From an uncultured candidate division WWE3 bacterium (lineage in GTDB: Bacteria > Patescibacteriota > WWE3 > UBA101185 > UBA10185), in assembly GCA_903879985.1 (NCBI GenBank), contig CAIRNR010000007.1, positions 346,880 through 410,879 on the forward strand: a stretch of 64,000 nt of DNA, given 5' to 3'. Positions 15,001 to 27,000 of the stretch are shown here, one piece after another. Positions within the stretch are counted from its first letter, which is position 1; every line of letters starts with the position of its first letter. Made by a program: the position numbers.

Positions 15001-18000
15001 ACCTTGCTATTTTTGGTAGGGCTGATCGCACTGAATTTCGGAATCATGTAAGTTTTAACCAAGATTTCAGCGTAAAGGATAAACGAGGCAATCAGTAGAT
15101 AAACCACTGCTTGCCTCCTAACTTAAGTCTATTTTGAAAATACTAAAGTAGGTTTAAGTTAGCAAAATTTAATCAACCGCAATCAATAAATTGCGAGAAA
15201 ATCTAACCGATAGGAGAGAAAAAGGATATTGTATTTACCTGGATGAACCCATACTTAAAACCCATGGGTGATATGTTGTACTACTCTTTTGTGGTAACAG
15301 GAATTCTTGGTATTCCTTTATGGATAATGGCATTTAACATGAAAATGTTTTACCAAGAATATGCAAAAGGAGTCACTCCGCCATATAATTCAACCATGTT
15401 ACTTATATACGTTGGATTTATGTGCACAGTAATTATTATGGGACTTTGGGATACCCTGCGCCCTGTGATGGCATACTGCGGCCTTCTTGCATTAGAGTTT
15501 TGGACAATCCGAAAAGCAGGGCTAGGCTACATCGAAAGAGAATGGGTGAGTGCAGTGAGAAATACCGTTCTTAGCCTTGCAGCGATTCCCATGCTTGTTC
15601 TGGTGCCGTTAGTAATCTTTATGGCATTAATACGGCAATAAAGTGTCAATCGGAGAAAAATATGATATTGATCTTGTCAGGTTTGGCGTTTTTTATGTTA
15701 GTACTTTCGGGTACAGGACTTATGCTCAGCTTGTATTTATACGCGCGCATGGAAGTAGACACCTACGAATGTGGCACCTACGGCGAAGCAGAAATCTGGG
15801 TGGCAAAACATTATGGAAAGTTTCGAAGGCTTTTACTGAAAGAGGGCACAGTAACAATATTATTAGTTACTGGATTTATAGGTGTGAGCTTCCTAATATA
15901 TAGCACCTTCTTTGCTTAAAGAACTTGAACCAAAAACCCCCTACGAACAAAAACGCAGAGGGTTTCTTTTTTGGCGTAATAATCACAAATAACTTAGTAG
16001 AATAAGAGTACAATGACGTTATGTTAGGTTTAATCTTACTTTTGATTGCAGGATCAGGACTTGTATATATCTCCAAATATAACTTCATGTTAGTTTCGGT
16101 TAATTTAGGGTTCTACACTATTTCTGAGATACCCCTGTTTTACGTAATCGCAGGAGCTATGCTTGTAGGCTTAATAATTTCCTATTTGGTATATCTAGGT
16201 CACGCCATTACCACATCCATTACTATTCGGGGCAAAGATGATGAAATTAAAAAGGAAAAAGAAGAAGTACTTGAATTAACAAAGCGTATTCATCAGCTGG
16301 AATTAGAAAACGAAAAAATACGAAACGGTTCTGACATCACACCACCAACGGACCAAAACGCACTGTGAAAAACCTTTTAGCAAAAATATATAAAGCCCTA
16401 CATCTTCCTAAAACCCTTCAGTTACGTATTATGCGTATATTCCAAGACCAATTTTTAGTTGGAGTCACCGGAATAATATTTAATGACAAGAATGAAATTC
16501 TTTTATTTAAACACACGTATCGCGCTCATTCATGGAGTTTGCCAGGAGGTTATTTAAAAGCCGGAGAGCACCCAAGAGAAGCGCTTGAACGCGAAATAAA
16601 GGAAGAGTCAGGATTAGTCGTTAGTGTTGATGATTCTCTTAAAACCCGTACAGATAGAGACTCGGCGCGCTTGGACATGTGTTATACGGGAGTTTTGATT
16701 GGCGACGACTTTGTACCAACTCACGAAGTTTCTGAGTATGGCTTTTTTACTCAAGATACGTTTCCGCTTTTGCGACAGAACCAGGTATTTTTGATAGATG
16801 AGGCATTGAAGCAGAAACTTTCTACGAATTTAAATTTAAATAGCTTATAAGTTGAGGAGCAGCAGCATTAATTTCTGGCGCAGAAATCCCGTGTTTTACT
16901 AGCTCAAGCATCTTTTCATGGAATTCTGCAGCTTTTCTACCATTTGGGTCCTCAGATAATTCCCATAGTCGCCAAACTTTTCCTGATGGGTCATAAATAT
17001 CATCTACTGGAGTATCCGGATCATCCTCGTTAACAGTAACTAAAACATTTTCTGGATTAAGTGAAAGCATAGTTTCCCACCAAACATCTTTACCAGATTG
17101 GGCTACCGCACTTGTGTGCAATCGATAAGTACCTGACAATACTTCCGTGGATTCATCCGAAACTACAGAATATGTCCCTTCGTCAAGATAAGTTTGAGGT
17201 AAAGGTTGTTCTGATTCAATAGTTGGTCTTAAAGCATTCATAATAAAATCTTAGCATAAGCTTCAAGCGATTTTTCTTTTCCCCAAAAAAAACATCTCGA
17301 AAATAAGAAAAAATATTATAACGTTAAGCGCACCTATGATAATAAATAAATATGTCTGTGTAGCAGTGTCTCCTTTTGTAACATTAAAACTGGCTGCAGC
17401 TGACTGATTTAAATCAGCATAATCATTAATTTTCATATCGATCTTATACATTCCCTGTGCAGCACTCGCAGGAATAGGCATGGAATCCATAAAGGAAGCT
17501 TGTGTCTCAATAGCTTTTAGCACCTTCAGGTAAGAAACCTCGGTGCCTTCCTTATTCTTAATGGAGTATTCGATTCTTAAATCTTTTCTACCATTATTTT
17601 CGGGCCATTTTACCTCGGTTTCAAAATACACTTTATCCCCCGGTTTCACGTCTGAAAATTTTTCGGGAATACTAAGTGTAGCCGTCATGGCAGAAACAGA
17701 TTTGGGCAAAATTACCAATCCAAAAAGAAATATTATTAGTGCGATTACGAAATATTTTATATACATAACTCTTACATTAATTTACTTGCGCTTAACCGTA
17801 GCCATACAACTAGACATTGATGAACGAAGTAGCAACGCAAGTATTACAAGTAATACAGAAATAATCAACGAAAGAACCAAATCCAAATAGATTAGTGCAA
17901 GTGTCTTGTTATAAATATCCTCCCGAATAGTTAAGTCTACAGCATGTTCCATTGCAGCCCAATCTCTATAGTTTTGATAAAGTTCTTGCTTATTTTTAGA

Positions 18001-24000: not shown

Positions 24001-27000
24001 ATAAGCCCCGCTTCCGCTTTGGCATAATAAATGTACGCACCATCACCCCATATGCTGTTTCCTTGGCCATCTTCTGCGTCTGTAATAGTAGCTTTTTGAG
24101 TAAACGTTGTTCCATTAAAGGTATATGCCGTTAAAGCACCAGAATAATCGGCCGTGTAAATGTAACCATTTGCACCCCAAACTCCTACGACATTAGTACC
24201 AACAGGAGCAACATTTCCCTTAGCGGTAAACGTTGTTCCATTAAAGGTATATGCTCTCAAACCATCAGTATCGTTGGCCAGATATATGTAAGTGCCGTCA
24301 CCCCAAACTGCAGTAGCATTGCCATCACTTCCACCCTCGTGAACAGTATCCTTAAGCGTGAAAGTCGAAGCGGCATATGAATAAGCACGTAAGCCATCCG
24401 TGTTATTAGCAACGTATATATTTGTACCATCCCCCCAAACATCGTAAACCTCGGCCCCAGGGTCAAGATGACCACCTGCTGTAAATGTTGTGCCGTTAAA
24501 GGTATATGCACGTAATTCACCGTAATCTGCCAAATAGACATTAGTGCCATCACCCCAAACTTTGTAAGCAGTACCTGCAGTATTTACCCAACCAACGTTG
24601 GAAAGAAACAATGGATCAGCTGCTGCTTGCACAGGTTTTGCCAGGAAACTAAGACTCAATATACCTACACATAAGGCTATTACCACGGAGAAAACGGATC
24701 TAGTTTCTATTTTTTTAATCATATCTTTTCACCACCTTTCAATTAAATTTATTACCAATAAAAAAAGCTCAAACGAAATTCGTTCGAGCTTCAGGAGCCT
24801 CTCAGTTTTTTACTAAATATTAAGTTAACGTAAGTCTAGGAGTACTATTTTTCTTTGTCAACCTCAAACATTAGGTTTTTTAACTACCCACCCCATGACT
24901 CTATAACCGATAAATTCACCAAAATCATCAAAACGTGGTGTAAAATATAAATCATTATAAGTAAGCGTGCCCTTAGAATTGTTACCACAATCTTGTTCCA
25001 CGCGATAAGGTTGTGCTAGAGAAGAAAAATGCTTGAAAGTTTCTTTAGAAACATCACGAGTAGTTGCGGGTAAATAATCAAAATAGTTTTTACCCAAAAC
25101 ATCCTTTGGCTTAAACCCAAATATTTGTTCAACAGAAGGACTGGTATATACGTTAATGCCATTTTTATCTAAATCAATATAATAATCACAAACGTTATCT
25201 ACAAATTTAGGAATTTTCTCAGCCACAAGCTTTTCATCACTAGTATTGTTCTTCAAAATAGCCGAAACCCAAAGAAGTTTTTCACCAGTATTGTCATTAA
25301 ATAGTTTAATTAATACTAGTATAGGTATCTTTTTGCCTTCTTTAGTTTGATGAAATGTATCAAGCTGAAAATAACTAGATTCCGTTAAAGGAAACTCCGA
25401 AGTCAAAAACTTTTCACCTAATTCCTTAGGAATTACAGGATAAATTTGGGTGAAAAACTTACCAACCAATTCATCAGTTGAATAACCAAGAATGATACAA
25501 GCCGATTCGCTCGCATTGATGACGACACCCTTATCATTAATTAATAAAAGGTAATGCCTTAAATCGTCCGCATGTTTAATTTGACCTATTCTACTTAACT
25601 CACCACAACGCCTACACTTAATTTCCAAAGAGCCATCAAATAGAATGCCCTTAAACAATAGCTTGCCACATTTGCAACGATATTCATTCTCTAATATTAT
25701 TCTCATAAATAGATATATAAAAAAAAATTAGGGAGCTTCAAGAGCTTCGATGCATATAAGCTATATAAAATATAGCATAATGTGTGAGTCAATAAAGACT
25801 TTTTGTTGAAACCATAAAGACACAGTTGGGAAAGACTATACTCTAGGTTACATACAGCATAAAATATGCTAAAATCCAACACAATAGACAAATAACCGCT
25901 AAAAAAAGGAGAAACAAAATGCCGGACGTATTCATTTACGCCAAAGAAGGAATTGTATATCTGCAGGTGGAAAGGCGATTAGCAGACATCTCTGATGTCA
26001 TTGCGGTCAGTATATCTGAGCCTTTAGGAAAAAAGCACGCGCAGATTAAAACGCGCATTATTTCGGTACAAGCAGGACCAACCGTGGCAGACGTGCATAT
26101 AGAAGTACGCACAAGCAGCAAAGAATCGGCTTCACAGCGAAAATTAAGACAGTTAAGCACATTAACTGCATTGATTAATACCTGGCAGTATTTGCAGAAT
26201 ATTCAAAAATTTGTCGGGGTCAAAAAAGTGGATGCCACCGTGGAAATCTCTACTAGCGATTGGGCTATGCTTTTTGAAGAAACCCAGCCATAAAAAGTCT
26301 ATTACAAAAAGGCGTTTGGATTCATTAGAACCATGCGCCTTTTCTTTTTCCATAAGAGTTACTGTATACTGTTTTTATGGCGACAATATATATAACAGAA
26401 GCATTTGATGCCGAAAATTTTGAACGTGAAACTATAAAATCGGTGGATACGATATCCAATCACATCGTTGGACATATTATTGATGACTTTACACAAGGGT
26501 TAGAAGAAGGAATGAGTTTAGAAAACGGTACATGGGGATGGGTCGATGCTATTTTGTATGATCTTCAAGAACCCGTTGAAAATCCCGAGCACGAAATAAT
26601 TAGAGGTACATTAATAAAAACCCTTTCATATCTTTCTGAATATAATGGCCGATTTACAAAAGAGTTTGGTCGCGATGACCCAATGTTTTTTGGATACTTA
26701 ACGCCTGCAGAGTTAAAAGAATTACAAAATATTTTAGAAAAACTTCCATCTGATATCGACAAGGGATATTTGTTAGAGTTTAAAGAACAGTTAGTGGGTA
26801 TGGCTGAAGTTTGTAAGAAAAGTAATTTAGGTATTCTTTTTTCCGCTTTGCCCTAATCAACGCTAACTCTCAATGAGCTATAGGTTGATATTTTATCTGG
26901 GAAAAGTTATAATCCGAACAATTAATCCATAAATAAGGAGTTGGAAATGACAGACAGTTCAATGTTTAAAGAACTACAAAAGCTCGGGCATCCCAGCGTT

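Follow-up and report, generated by a model that had tools for sequence, protein, structure and literature searches.

A putative surface-protein operon in a WWE3 bacterium

The subject of this report is a 64,000-nucleotide stretch of genome from an uncultured candidate division WWE3 bacterium (GenBank assembly GCA_903879985.1, contig CAIRNR010000007.1, forward-strand positions 346,880 to 410,879; hereafter the window) and, within it, a group of seven genes, G1 to G7, that a preliminary description had singled out as a candidate cell-surface or adhesin system. The seven open reading frames (ORFs) all lie on the minus strand, run from 24722 down to 17263, and are closely packed, with spacings from G1 to G7 of 120, 3, -4, 5, -11, and 15 nt. 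This arrangement agrees with the preliminary description, and independent gene calls on metagenome contigs from the same organism, at least six in number, give the same genes. Every product indeed carries a signal peptide or membrane anchor, as had been claimed: a hydrophobic N-terminal segment is predicted in all seven, and G3, G4, G6, and G7 additionally end in a C-terminal transmembrane (TM) helix followed by a basic tail, the anchor of G5 being N-terminal only. A motif scan finds no LPXTG-type motif near the C terminus of any of the seven proteins, and a weak Gram_pos_anchor match in Pfam (E 0.078) covers a TM helix and tail only. No sortase is found among the neighboring genes and the cluster has no ATPase, as already noted in the preliminary description, and there is no usher-like gene in the operon or its flanks. 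A sortase-dependent pilus or adhesin of the Gram-positive type was rejected for want of both the LPXTG motif and a neighboring sortase.

The operon has its own promoter-like site and a ribosome-binding site, both anticipated earlier: a sigma-70-like TTGACA-17-TAGACT element (24833-24861, minus; 10/12 matches in a consensus scan) and the Shine-Dalgarno sequence aaggtgg (24732-24738, minus), read off the sequence ahead of G1. G1 (22875-24722, minus; 615 aa) comprises a signal peptide, a propeller (aa ~45-340, nt 23703-24590), and a two-Ig domain that we call A-type (aa ~345-615, nt 22878-23690). The propeller contains seven repeats, one fewer than the estimate of about eight made initially, each of ~42 aa and following the pattern VWGDGxxIYxA...GLRAYTFNGTxFT. 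Its proposed likeness to LVIVD proteins is an indirect one: G1 has no match to LVIVD (PF08309) in Pfam even at E<=1, but among its homologues (E 1e-60 to 1e-102, 40-56% identical) several carry PF08309 and one is named LVIVD repeat protein. All but two of the 144 homologues found in the database search align to the N-terminal half alone, and the fusion of a propeller to a G2-type domain is shared, among the proteins retrieved, by P0109 only. Judged by this homology, the predicted seven-bladed propeller is LVIVD-like and behaves as a mobile module.

G2 (21912-22754, minus; 280 aa, ~28 kDa when mature) is a signal peptide followed by a counterpart of the C-terminal ~270 aa of G1. The two are paralogues (37% identity, E 2e-37), as the preliminary description had recognized, and we refer to G2 as the B-type subunit. 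The CARDB-like label attached to this region was not borne out, neither G1 nor G2 having a CARDB match; G1, G2, G4, and G6 have no Pfam match at all, and WxL (PF13731) matches none of 24 G2-family members at E<=10. An AlphaFold2 model of G2 built from a 24-sequence alignment (pLDDT 90.1) predicts two tandem beta-sandwiches, an N-terminal domain (NTD, aa 30-147) of 8-9 strands and a C-terminal domain (CTD, aa 173-280) of 6-8 strands, joined by a conserved linker (aa 148-172), in keeping with the Ig-like folds anticipated for this operon. The family keeps the cysteine pairs C67/C107 and C206/C271 with little or no variation, and its conserved C terminus reads NTGN...YWG.G.P..GV.G.C.G.V.FT; tryptophan is conserved in W-T-A and W-G-[FL] contexts, and the dual W-x-L motif is not conserved. 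Foldseek matches the model to the two-domain tip adhesins FimH and CsuE (E about 1e-4) and to the matrix protein RbmA (5.5e-5), and profiles of G2 and G3 matched nothing relevant in a PDB profile search. A peak of conservation in linker or CTD, as described for the Pam pilins discussed below, was also sought in the G2 family; the profile is flat (2.97, 2.99, and 2.93 bits) and uninformative.

The adjacent gene, G3 (20688-21908, minus; 406 aa), encodes a signal peptide, three Ig-like domains, a TM helix, and a KKRKGSK tail; this tail and the RRRKIREY tail of G4 follow predicted C-terminal TM helices, as first described. The G3 model (pLDDT 84.5) shows three beta-sandwich domains and then the TM helix, with a disordered loop (aa 122-132) before the last strand of domain 1, and the domains group with PapD-like/ASH and CARDB types. 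The earlier assignment to DUF916/CARDB stands in its second half (CARDB, Pfam E 4.6e-7) and falls in its first, DUF916 being matched neither by G3 nor by any family member in Pfam scans. The closest relatives belong to a metagenome-assembled genome (MAG) labeled 'Patescibacteria group bacterium' (67% identity) and to 'Parcubacteria bacterium DG_72' (49%). G3 is the only invariant membrane-anchored partner in the cluster, and we propose that it is an anchored chaperone or scaffold.

The core of the cluster is the triplet of A-type subunit, B-type paralogue, and G3. The expectation of synteny in related genomes was borne out: these genes are adjacent in about 25 loci (designated here by L numbers) from Patescibacteria, one Woesearchaeota MAG, and contigs of unknown origin. 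The order A-type (closest to the G1 C terminus), B-type (closest to G2), G3 is found in L012, L009, L017, L018, L032, L033, and L034. A search with a G3 profile gave 17 metagenome loci, 15 of which have one to three G2-type genes immediately upstream of G3; the upstream sequence of the remaining two is at most 0.6 kb long. The G2-G3 pair of the Woesearchaeota MAG has archaeal-looking neighbors, and a contig binned to the Gammaproteobacteria shows the reversed order, G3 and then two G2-type genes. Only three further loci came from a scan of a genome collection, and the core family is small and patchy, with 25 to 35 sequence clusters among 5.8 billion proteins. Neither the G2-type nor the G3-type family has a Pfam model or a literature.

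The whole order is kept in one relative, L012, where a Com-like gene (see below) is followed by A, B, G3, three G4-like copies, G5, G6, and G7; outside the L012 clade, different proteins with fn3, dockerin, or Ig-plus-TM architecture stand in place of G4 to G7. Relatives have fn3-plus-TM proteins and also a weak RbmA-like_FnIII match (E 0.009). The N-terminal heads of the A-type subunits differ from locus to locus. The head is a propeller in the window and in P0109, an ice-binding-like domain (Ice_binding, 4.8e-33) in L020, a region of about 1500 aa in L010, and unknown domains in L028, L029, and L033; L012, L009, L017, and L034 have none. Such interchangeable heads form a modular pattern that is typical of adhesins and of large WxL proteins.

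A stable GC-rich hairpin without a T-run lies 3' of the first structural gene in five genomes: in the window within the 120-nt G1-G2 gap (22816-22842, minus; minimum free energy (MFE) -22.2 kcal/mol, z -5.3), in L012 (~5256-5287), and in L034, L032, and L033, in the gaps between A and B. This hairpin may be a transcript stabilizer or a partial terminator that sets subunit ratios, and its recurrence suggests unequal subunit dosage. It also suggests that an excess of the A-type subunit is produced, a point in favor of a fiber; the very large heads that this subunit carries point instead to a platform or a tip adhesin.

The distal genes are also all on the minus strand. G4 (19417-20691; 424 aa) consists of a signal peptide, a head, a Thr/Pro linker, an Ig stalk, a TM helix, and its basic tail. 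The head of ~200 aa (aa 37-240, window 19972-20583) finds no Pfam or PDB match in profile searches. It has 2035 cluster representatives at E<=1e-3, more than 2000 clusters at 50% identity and mostly within proteins of 1000-2500 aa, with the consensus ...AIEIGF.GAKLSFDKAVRILLPGQAGKR.GY.R.G..FTEI..C..D.....D..CKI..G.DLVIWTKHFT.FA.Y; it is a very common uncharacterized surface domain. Head and stalk occur separately in other proteins, the stalk and TM anchor recur behind other heads such as fn3 or Listeria-Bacteroides repeats, and the three G4 paralogues of L012 share stalk and TM and differ in their heads. G5 (18470-19411; 313 aa) combines its N-terminal TM anchor with a dCache_1 ectodomain (Pfam E 9.3e-14), confirming the Cache-like ectodomain first described; it has no output domain, and a 55% identical homologue occupies the same position in L012. 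G6 (17782-18480; 232 aa) carries a ~165-aa helical ectodomain between two TM segments. Gene callers start it at the ATG at 18480; a GTG start would give 261 aa, probably too many. In L012, the G6 homologue (11825-12904) has an extra cytoplasmic PAS domain (PAS_9 4.3e-10, aa 247-352) that is not present in the window protein. Finally, G7 (17263-17766; 167 aa) is made of a signal peptide, one Ig-like domain with a below-threshold Pfam match to MG2 (5.4e-7), a TM helix, and a basic tail; it is 64% identical to its L012 homologue and weakly linked both to an Alph_Pro_TM-like protein of L009 and to the G4 stalk.

An eighth same-strand ORF (16822-17241, minus; 139 aa, acidic) begins 21 nt past G7 and shares 29 nt at its 3' end with a convergent NUDIX gene (16365-16850). 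Pfam gives no match for it, and it has no signal peptide or other export signal; lacking such a signal and missing from L012, it was rejected as an operon member.

A putative Com-PAS regulator and an associated leader element

Directly upstream of the promoter-like site of the operon, the window encodes a putative regulator of 280 aa (24864-25706, minus) made of a Com-type zinc ribbon (aa 8-39, nt 25590-25685) and two PAS domains. The Pfam matches are PAS_9 (1.3e-16), PAS (9.5e-14), and Zn_ribbon_Com (PF10122, 1.9e-4), the last scoring 21.2 bits, slightly under its cut-off of 22.9. A PAS regulator beside the operon had been noted at the outset; it appears functionally linked to the operon, and the ribbon of Mu Com type with which it begins is new here, as is the Com-associated leader described below. 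All five zinc-ribbon homologues match PHROG families (phrog_6417 and phrog_13819) annotated as 'translational regulator' (best 6.3e-8) and 'gpCom' (best 3.6e-6). The four cysteines of the ribbon, a putative RNA binder, are invariant, as is the signature EYRCxCxKLxF...E.KC..C (in fuller form EYRCxCGKLLFKG...IEIKCKRC). Stand-alone Com-like homologues of 46-102 aa are encoded directly upstream of the cluster in L012, L009, L018, and L033. The placement of the PAS domains differs between genomes: in L012 the PAS domain is on the G6 homologue and Com is free, and in the window two PAS domains are on the Com protein and G6 has none. This exchange of domains lends support to a functional chain in which PAS connects G5/G6 with Com.

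The leader of G1 contains a candidate attenuator, GAGGCTCctGAAGCTC (24758-24804, minus; terminator scan). The second of its two GAAGCTC heptamers serves as the 5' arm of a terminator hairpin of 13 bp (MFE -18.8 kcal/mol, z -3.4), which is followed by T7. A further copy, GAAGCTCttGAAGCTC and then T9, precedes the regulator gene itself (25717-25751, minus) as an exact tandem motif. We name the element R1; it has the form GAAGCTC-N2-3-GAAGCTC, the second heptamer always being the 5' arm of the hairpin, with a T-run behind it. Thirteen copies are found in five genomes, all within the clusters: the two of the window, four in L012 (3874, 4211, 8425, and 10225), two in L009 (7765 and 7822), two in L018 (1773 and 2032), and three in L033 (6930, 6979, and 14376). 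They stand before the Com gene, before the first structural gene and, in L012, also between internal genes, and sigma-70-like promoter sites occur 19-32 nt upstream of the element in the window and also in L012, L033, and L009. A comparison of 12 copies shows an invariant outer stem and covariation in the inner one. In 300 kb of related sequence, a covariance model trained on these 12 recovers them (the G1 leader at 49.8 bits) and the copy at 25717-25751, absent from the training set (29.8 bits, E 8e-5), and nothing else.

A Com-like gene is present in exactly the five genomes that have R1, and tblastn finds no Com-like ORF in any of ten other loci, each with at least 0.9 kb of upstream sequence; all five genomes that have the gene carry R1, and none of the ten lacking it does. 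Rfam gave no family at the gathering threshold for the leaders in the window and, for four related loci, no match at E<=1; a known RNA family was therefore rejected as the identity of the leader. The Com protein of phage Mu is an RNA-binding zinc finger that recognizes CC(N)2-3GAG in a hairpin loop (PMC6483171), and the junction of the R1 repeats, CUC-N2-3-GAAG, resembles this site. From these features we infer that the Com-like protein would control read-through at the RNA level, by antitermination.

Loci without Com carry a different conserved leader, GAGUGA(A/G)AGGAC...GUCUGAUCAC, followed by a short ORF and next a CCCGC/GCGGG terminator, upstream of the first G2-type gene (L017 4961 and 5214, a tandem duplicate; L020 4370; L019 1-40; L034 ~690); it has no Rfam match at E<=1. 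Many related loci (L009 ~7900, L010 ~5725, L017 ~5385, L019 ~85, L020 ~4545, L022/L023, L032 ~8825, and L033 ~9975) share a conserved box, AAAGGTCGA(A/G), that precedes their first structural gene by 45-70 nt, the window having no copy at that position; in L032 the box is followed by six tandem TAGTTTGA repeats.

The genes flanking the operon in the window are bacterial (DnaG, MutS/MutL, and SufB), and the organism, probably ultra-small, is likely to be of Parcubacteria-like origin within the candidate phyla radiation; contigs carrying the proteins reach 715 kb. A PAS-only protein of 499 aa without an output domain is encoded 2 kb away on the opposite strand (27920-29419, plus), with a lone GAAGCTC heptamer at 27754, ~160 nt upstream of its gene. 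A 950-aa ORF (31195-34047, minus) has no Pfam match, and neither has a 682-aa ORF with a TTG start (45838-47886, plus), which overlaps the 5' part of dnaG (44035-46074) by 237 nt on the opposite strand and may be spurious or mis-started. ARAGORN reports ten tRNAs in the window, of which four are tRNA-Ser; of those at 51650-51737 (minus) and 53473-53563 (minus), one has the unusual anticodon ACT and the other is tRNA-Ser(CGA), the sole ARAGORN tRNA of the ten without an Rfam report at the gathering threshold.

A proposed anchored assembly and its alternatives

Based on the above data, we consider it probable that the operon encodes a Sec-exported surface assembly, likely an adhesin, in which the anchored G3 holds or assembles the G1 and G2 subunits under a Com-dependent switch and without sortase, usher, or ATPase. 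In this mechanism, G3 would receive the two-beta-sandwich domain common to G1 and G2 and bind it by beta-strand complementation, a proposal we make because the WxL/WxLIP clusters of Gram-positive bacteria and the Pam pilus use such logic. G3 would then either retain these domains as a short platform or hand them into a fiber; a polymer and a platform appear about equally likely. Ligand binding would fall to the seven-bladed propeller of G1 as the exposed head, G4 and G7 would provide extra anchored heads or act as anchors or terminators, and G5, through its dCache domain, together with G6 could form a membrane sensor. The Com-like protein would bind the GAAGCUC repeats in the nascent RNA and prevent, or alternatively promote, formation of the terminator, and the PAS domains fused to it in the window would make this read-through step signal-dependent. 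Adhesion, and in particular attachment to a host, would be the function of the assembly.

Several observations weigh against this proposal. The monomer model of G2 appears complete in both domains, and the structural matches are generic to Ig folds, with low TM-scores of at most 0.36. No sequence similarity links the proteins of the cluster to WxL, to the PGBD (DUF916) of WxLIP, to PapD/FimC, or to any solved pilin, and G4 to G7 are poorly conserved beyond the closest relatives. The leader copy at 25717-25751 has no stable hairpin (fold z-score 0.04), and that of the G1 leader may be nothing more than a terminator for the PAS gene.

The operon might instead encode a true Pam-family pilus. Pam pili were reported from Ca. 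Mycosynbacter amalyticus, a member of the candidate phyla radiation (CPR; Saccharimonadia), as polymers formed by donor-strand exchange, whose pilins of 39-55 kDa combine a signal peptide with a nine-strand beta-sandwich NTD, a linker that provides the donor strand, and an Ig-like CTD in truncated form (Troman et al., bioRxiv 2026, doi 10.64898/2026.03.03.709456). The A- and B-type subunits would then be divergent PamA/B-type pilins exchanging linker donor strands, G3 an orthologue of PamC/D, and G4 and G7 PamR-like anchors or terminators. The component list matches the preprint by description, the organism is a CPR bacterium, and a hairpin past gene A fits the dosage of a major subunit. Mature G2, however, has only ~28 kDa, Pam is reported in CPR alone whereas the family described here is found in a DPANN archaeon as well, and it would be unusual for a polymerizing major subunit to carry heads of 300 to 1500 aa. 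The three domains of G3 count against this identity and also against our own proposal, since PamC/D and WxLIP have two, and we regard a Pam-family pilus as rather doubtful. A surface complex that captures nutrients or polymers, cellulosome-like and with heads that bind environmental glycans or particles instead of a host, seems less likely still. It would account for the fn3 and Dockerin_1 proteins of related clusters, for the ice-binding-like beta-helix of one head, and for a dCache sensor with PAS regulation, which fits substrate sensing, and Csc/WxL clusters were themselves first proposed to serve carbohydrate utilization (PMC1534035). Yet Pfam scans and gene annotations reveal no hydrolase, transporter, or binding-protein gene within the operon, and dockerin and fn3 are absent from the cluster of the window itself. 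An envelope or S-layer-like lattice, or a cell-wall scaffold without a specific ligand, is very unlikely: unlike core envelope proteins, copy number and head domains differ strongly between close relatives, the family is small and patchy, and the cluster is under dedicated sensory regulation.

As to regulation alone, it is possible, if somewhat doubtful, that the GAAGCTC repeats act as an operator in the DNA, or that the hairpins are ordinary terminators, the Com-like protein being a DNA-binding repressor or activator or unrelated. A repeat period of 9-10 bp suits a DNA-binding dimer, and OmpR-type response regulators are encoded near several related clusters; the missing hairpin before the regulator gene and the position of the window element 60-100 nt past the PAS stop codon also favor this reading. 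Against it stand the RNA-binding activity of Mu Com, whose target resembles the repeat junction, the constant use of the second repeat as 5' arm, the short distance between promoter-like sites and element, and the copies between cluster genes in L012.

We tentatively suggest, as a possibility rather than an expectation, that the operon represents an undescribed family of usher- and sortase-independent fibers or adhesins of Parcubacteria-like CPR bacteria and DPANN archaea, distinct from Pam and WxL, with a three-Ig chaperone and interchangeable heads, and that the Com zinc ribbon, free or fused to PAS, represents a new class of antiterminator acting on GAAGCUC leader terminators. The preliminary description had called the system undescribed; this is too broad, since the Pam preprint, now the nearest precedent, describes the same component logic. 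Apart from type IV pili and the recently described Pam pili, little is known of how the ultra-small CPR and DPANN episymbionts recognize and hold their hosts, and the cluster adds a second candidate for an attachment apparatus, one that genomes allow us to follow. Its presence in bacterial and archaeal episymbiont lineages hints at exchange between them. If true, the pairing of a Com-like ribbon with a GAAGCUC-terminator leader would mean that an RNA-binding regulator of phage type has been put to cellular use and coupled to a sensor, giving a simple attenuation switch that is directly testable.

Comparison with known systems

By description, the operon resembles the Pam system in uniting, in a CPR organism and in one operon, paralogous two-domain Ig-like subunits with Sec signals and paired cysteines (the latter found in the G2 family), a PapD-like protein with a C-terminal TM helix (here, putatively, G3), and further TM-anchored FnIII/Ig proteins, with no usher, sortase, or ATPase. 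The Pam chaperones are PapD-like and keep a C-terminal TM helix, and a TM-anchored FnIII protein serves as tether; PamR, which resembles RbmA, has FnIII domains in tandem and a TM helix at its C terminus, and G4 and G7 (Ig stalk and TM) may be set beside it by domain layout (Pam sequences WP_260763287, WP_260763280, WP_260763277, and WP_260763284; models PDB 25PZ and 25QA). Besides the smaller subunits and the third domain of G3, the operon differs in the large propeller head on one subunit, in its neighbors (PAS/Com and dCache genes here, ATP synthase and CorB in Pam), and in its hosts, a DPANN archaeon and Parcubacteria-like genomes lying outside the classes reported for Pam, mainly Saccharimonadia and Microgenomatia. 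As a separate observation, the first gene past the Com leader in L033 (7037-8353) encodes a 438-aa protein with a Peptidase_S74 domain, a tail-fiber intramolecular chaperone, which echoes the 'tail fibre-like protein' reported in Pam pilus neighborhoods.

In the WxL/WxLIP (Csc) clusters of Lactobacillales and Bacillales, the prediction is that a TM-anchored DUF916-DUF3324 protein, WxLIP, complements the WxL domain of small and large WxL proteins with an inserted strand (Hassan et al. 2023, PMC10599100; Siezen et al. 2006, PMC1534035). The resemblance to these clusters put forward in the preliminary description survives in layout: a small protein made of the anchor domain alone (G2), a large protein with the same domain C-terminal behind variable heads (G1), and an adjacent protein of signal peptide, Ig domains, TM helix, and basic tail (G3). 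It does not extend to sequence membership. The anchor module here spans ~250 aa and two sandwiches, whereas WxL is one domain of 160-190 aa with two Trp-x-Leu motifs; G3 does not have the WxLIP architecture of DUF916 (PGBD), DUF3324 (HBD), and TM helix, and has three domains instead of two; and the hosts belong to other phyla, one of them an archaeon without peptidoglycan. Membership in WxL/DUF916 was rejected, family-wide Pfam scans and profile searches against the PDB having given nothing specific, and is kept as an analogy. The chaperone-usher systems (Fim, Pap, and Csu) share the PapD-like superfamily Ig fold with G3, the two-domain layout of their tip adhesins FimH and CsuE with G1 and G2, and a hairpin after the first structural gene. 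They differ in that the operon has no usher, the organism no outer membrane, and the chaperone-like protein is membrane-anchored, where theirs is soluble and periplasmic, and without sequence similarity. With the LVIVD propeller proteins of archaea and bacteria (PF08309), G1 shares the ~42-aa repeat and the pattern VWGDG.yiYvA...GLraY, but it falls below any Pfam LVIVD score and its seven blades are fused to a G2-type domain.

The proposed switch combines features of two kinds of RNA-level control. It shares with Mu Com/mom the CxxC...CxxC zinc ribbon and a proposed target made of a short repeat beside or within an RNA hairpin, but the gene is chromosomal in a CPR bacterium and, in the window, fused to two PAS domains, and the proposed target is a terminator before surface-protein genes instead of the translation-inhibition structure of a DNA-modification gene. 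From TRAP, HutP, and PyrR it differs in its unrelated zinc-ribbon fold, in having only two to three repeats, and in the lack of an evident antiterminator alternative structure. What it has in common with these attenuation systems is a 5' leader in which short tandem repeats overlap one arm of the terminator, and a regulator that is encoded beside the operon and has the same element upstream of its own gene.

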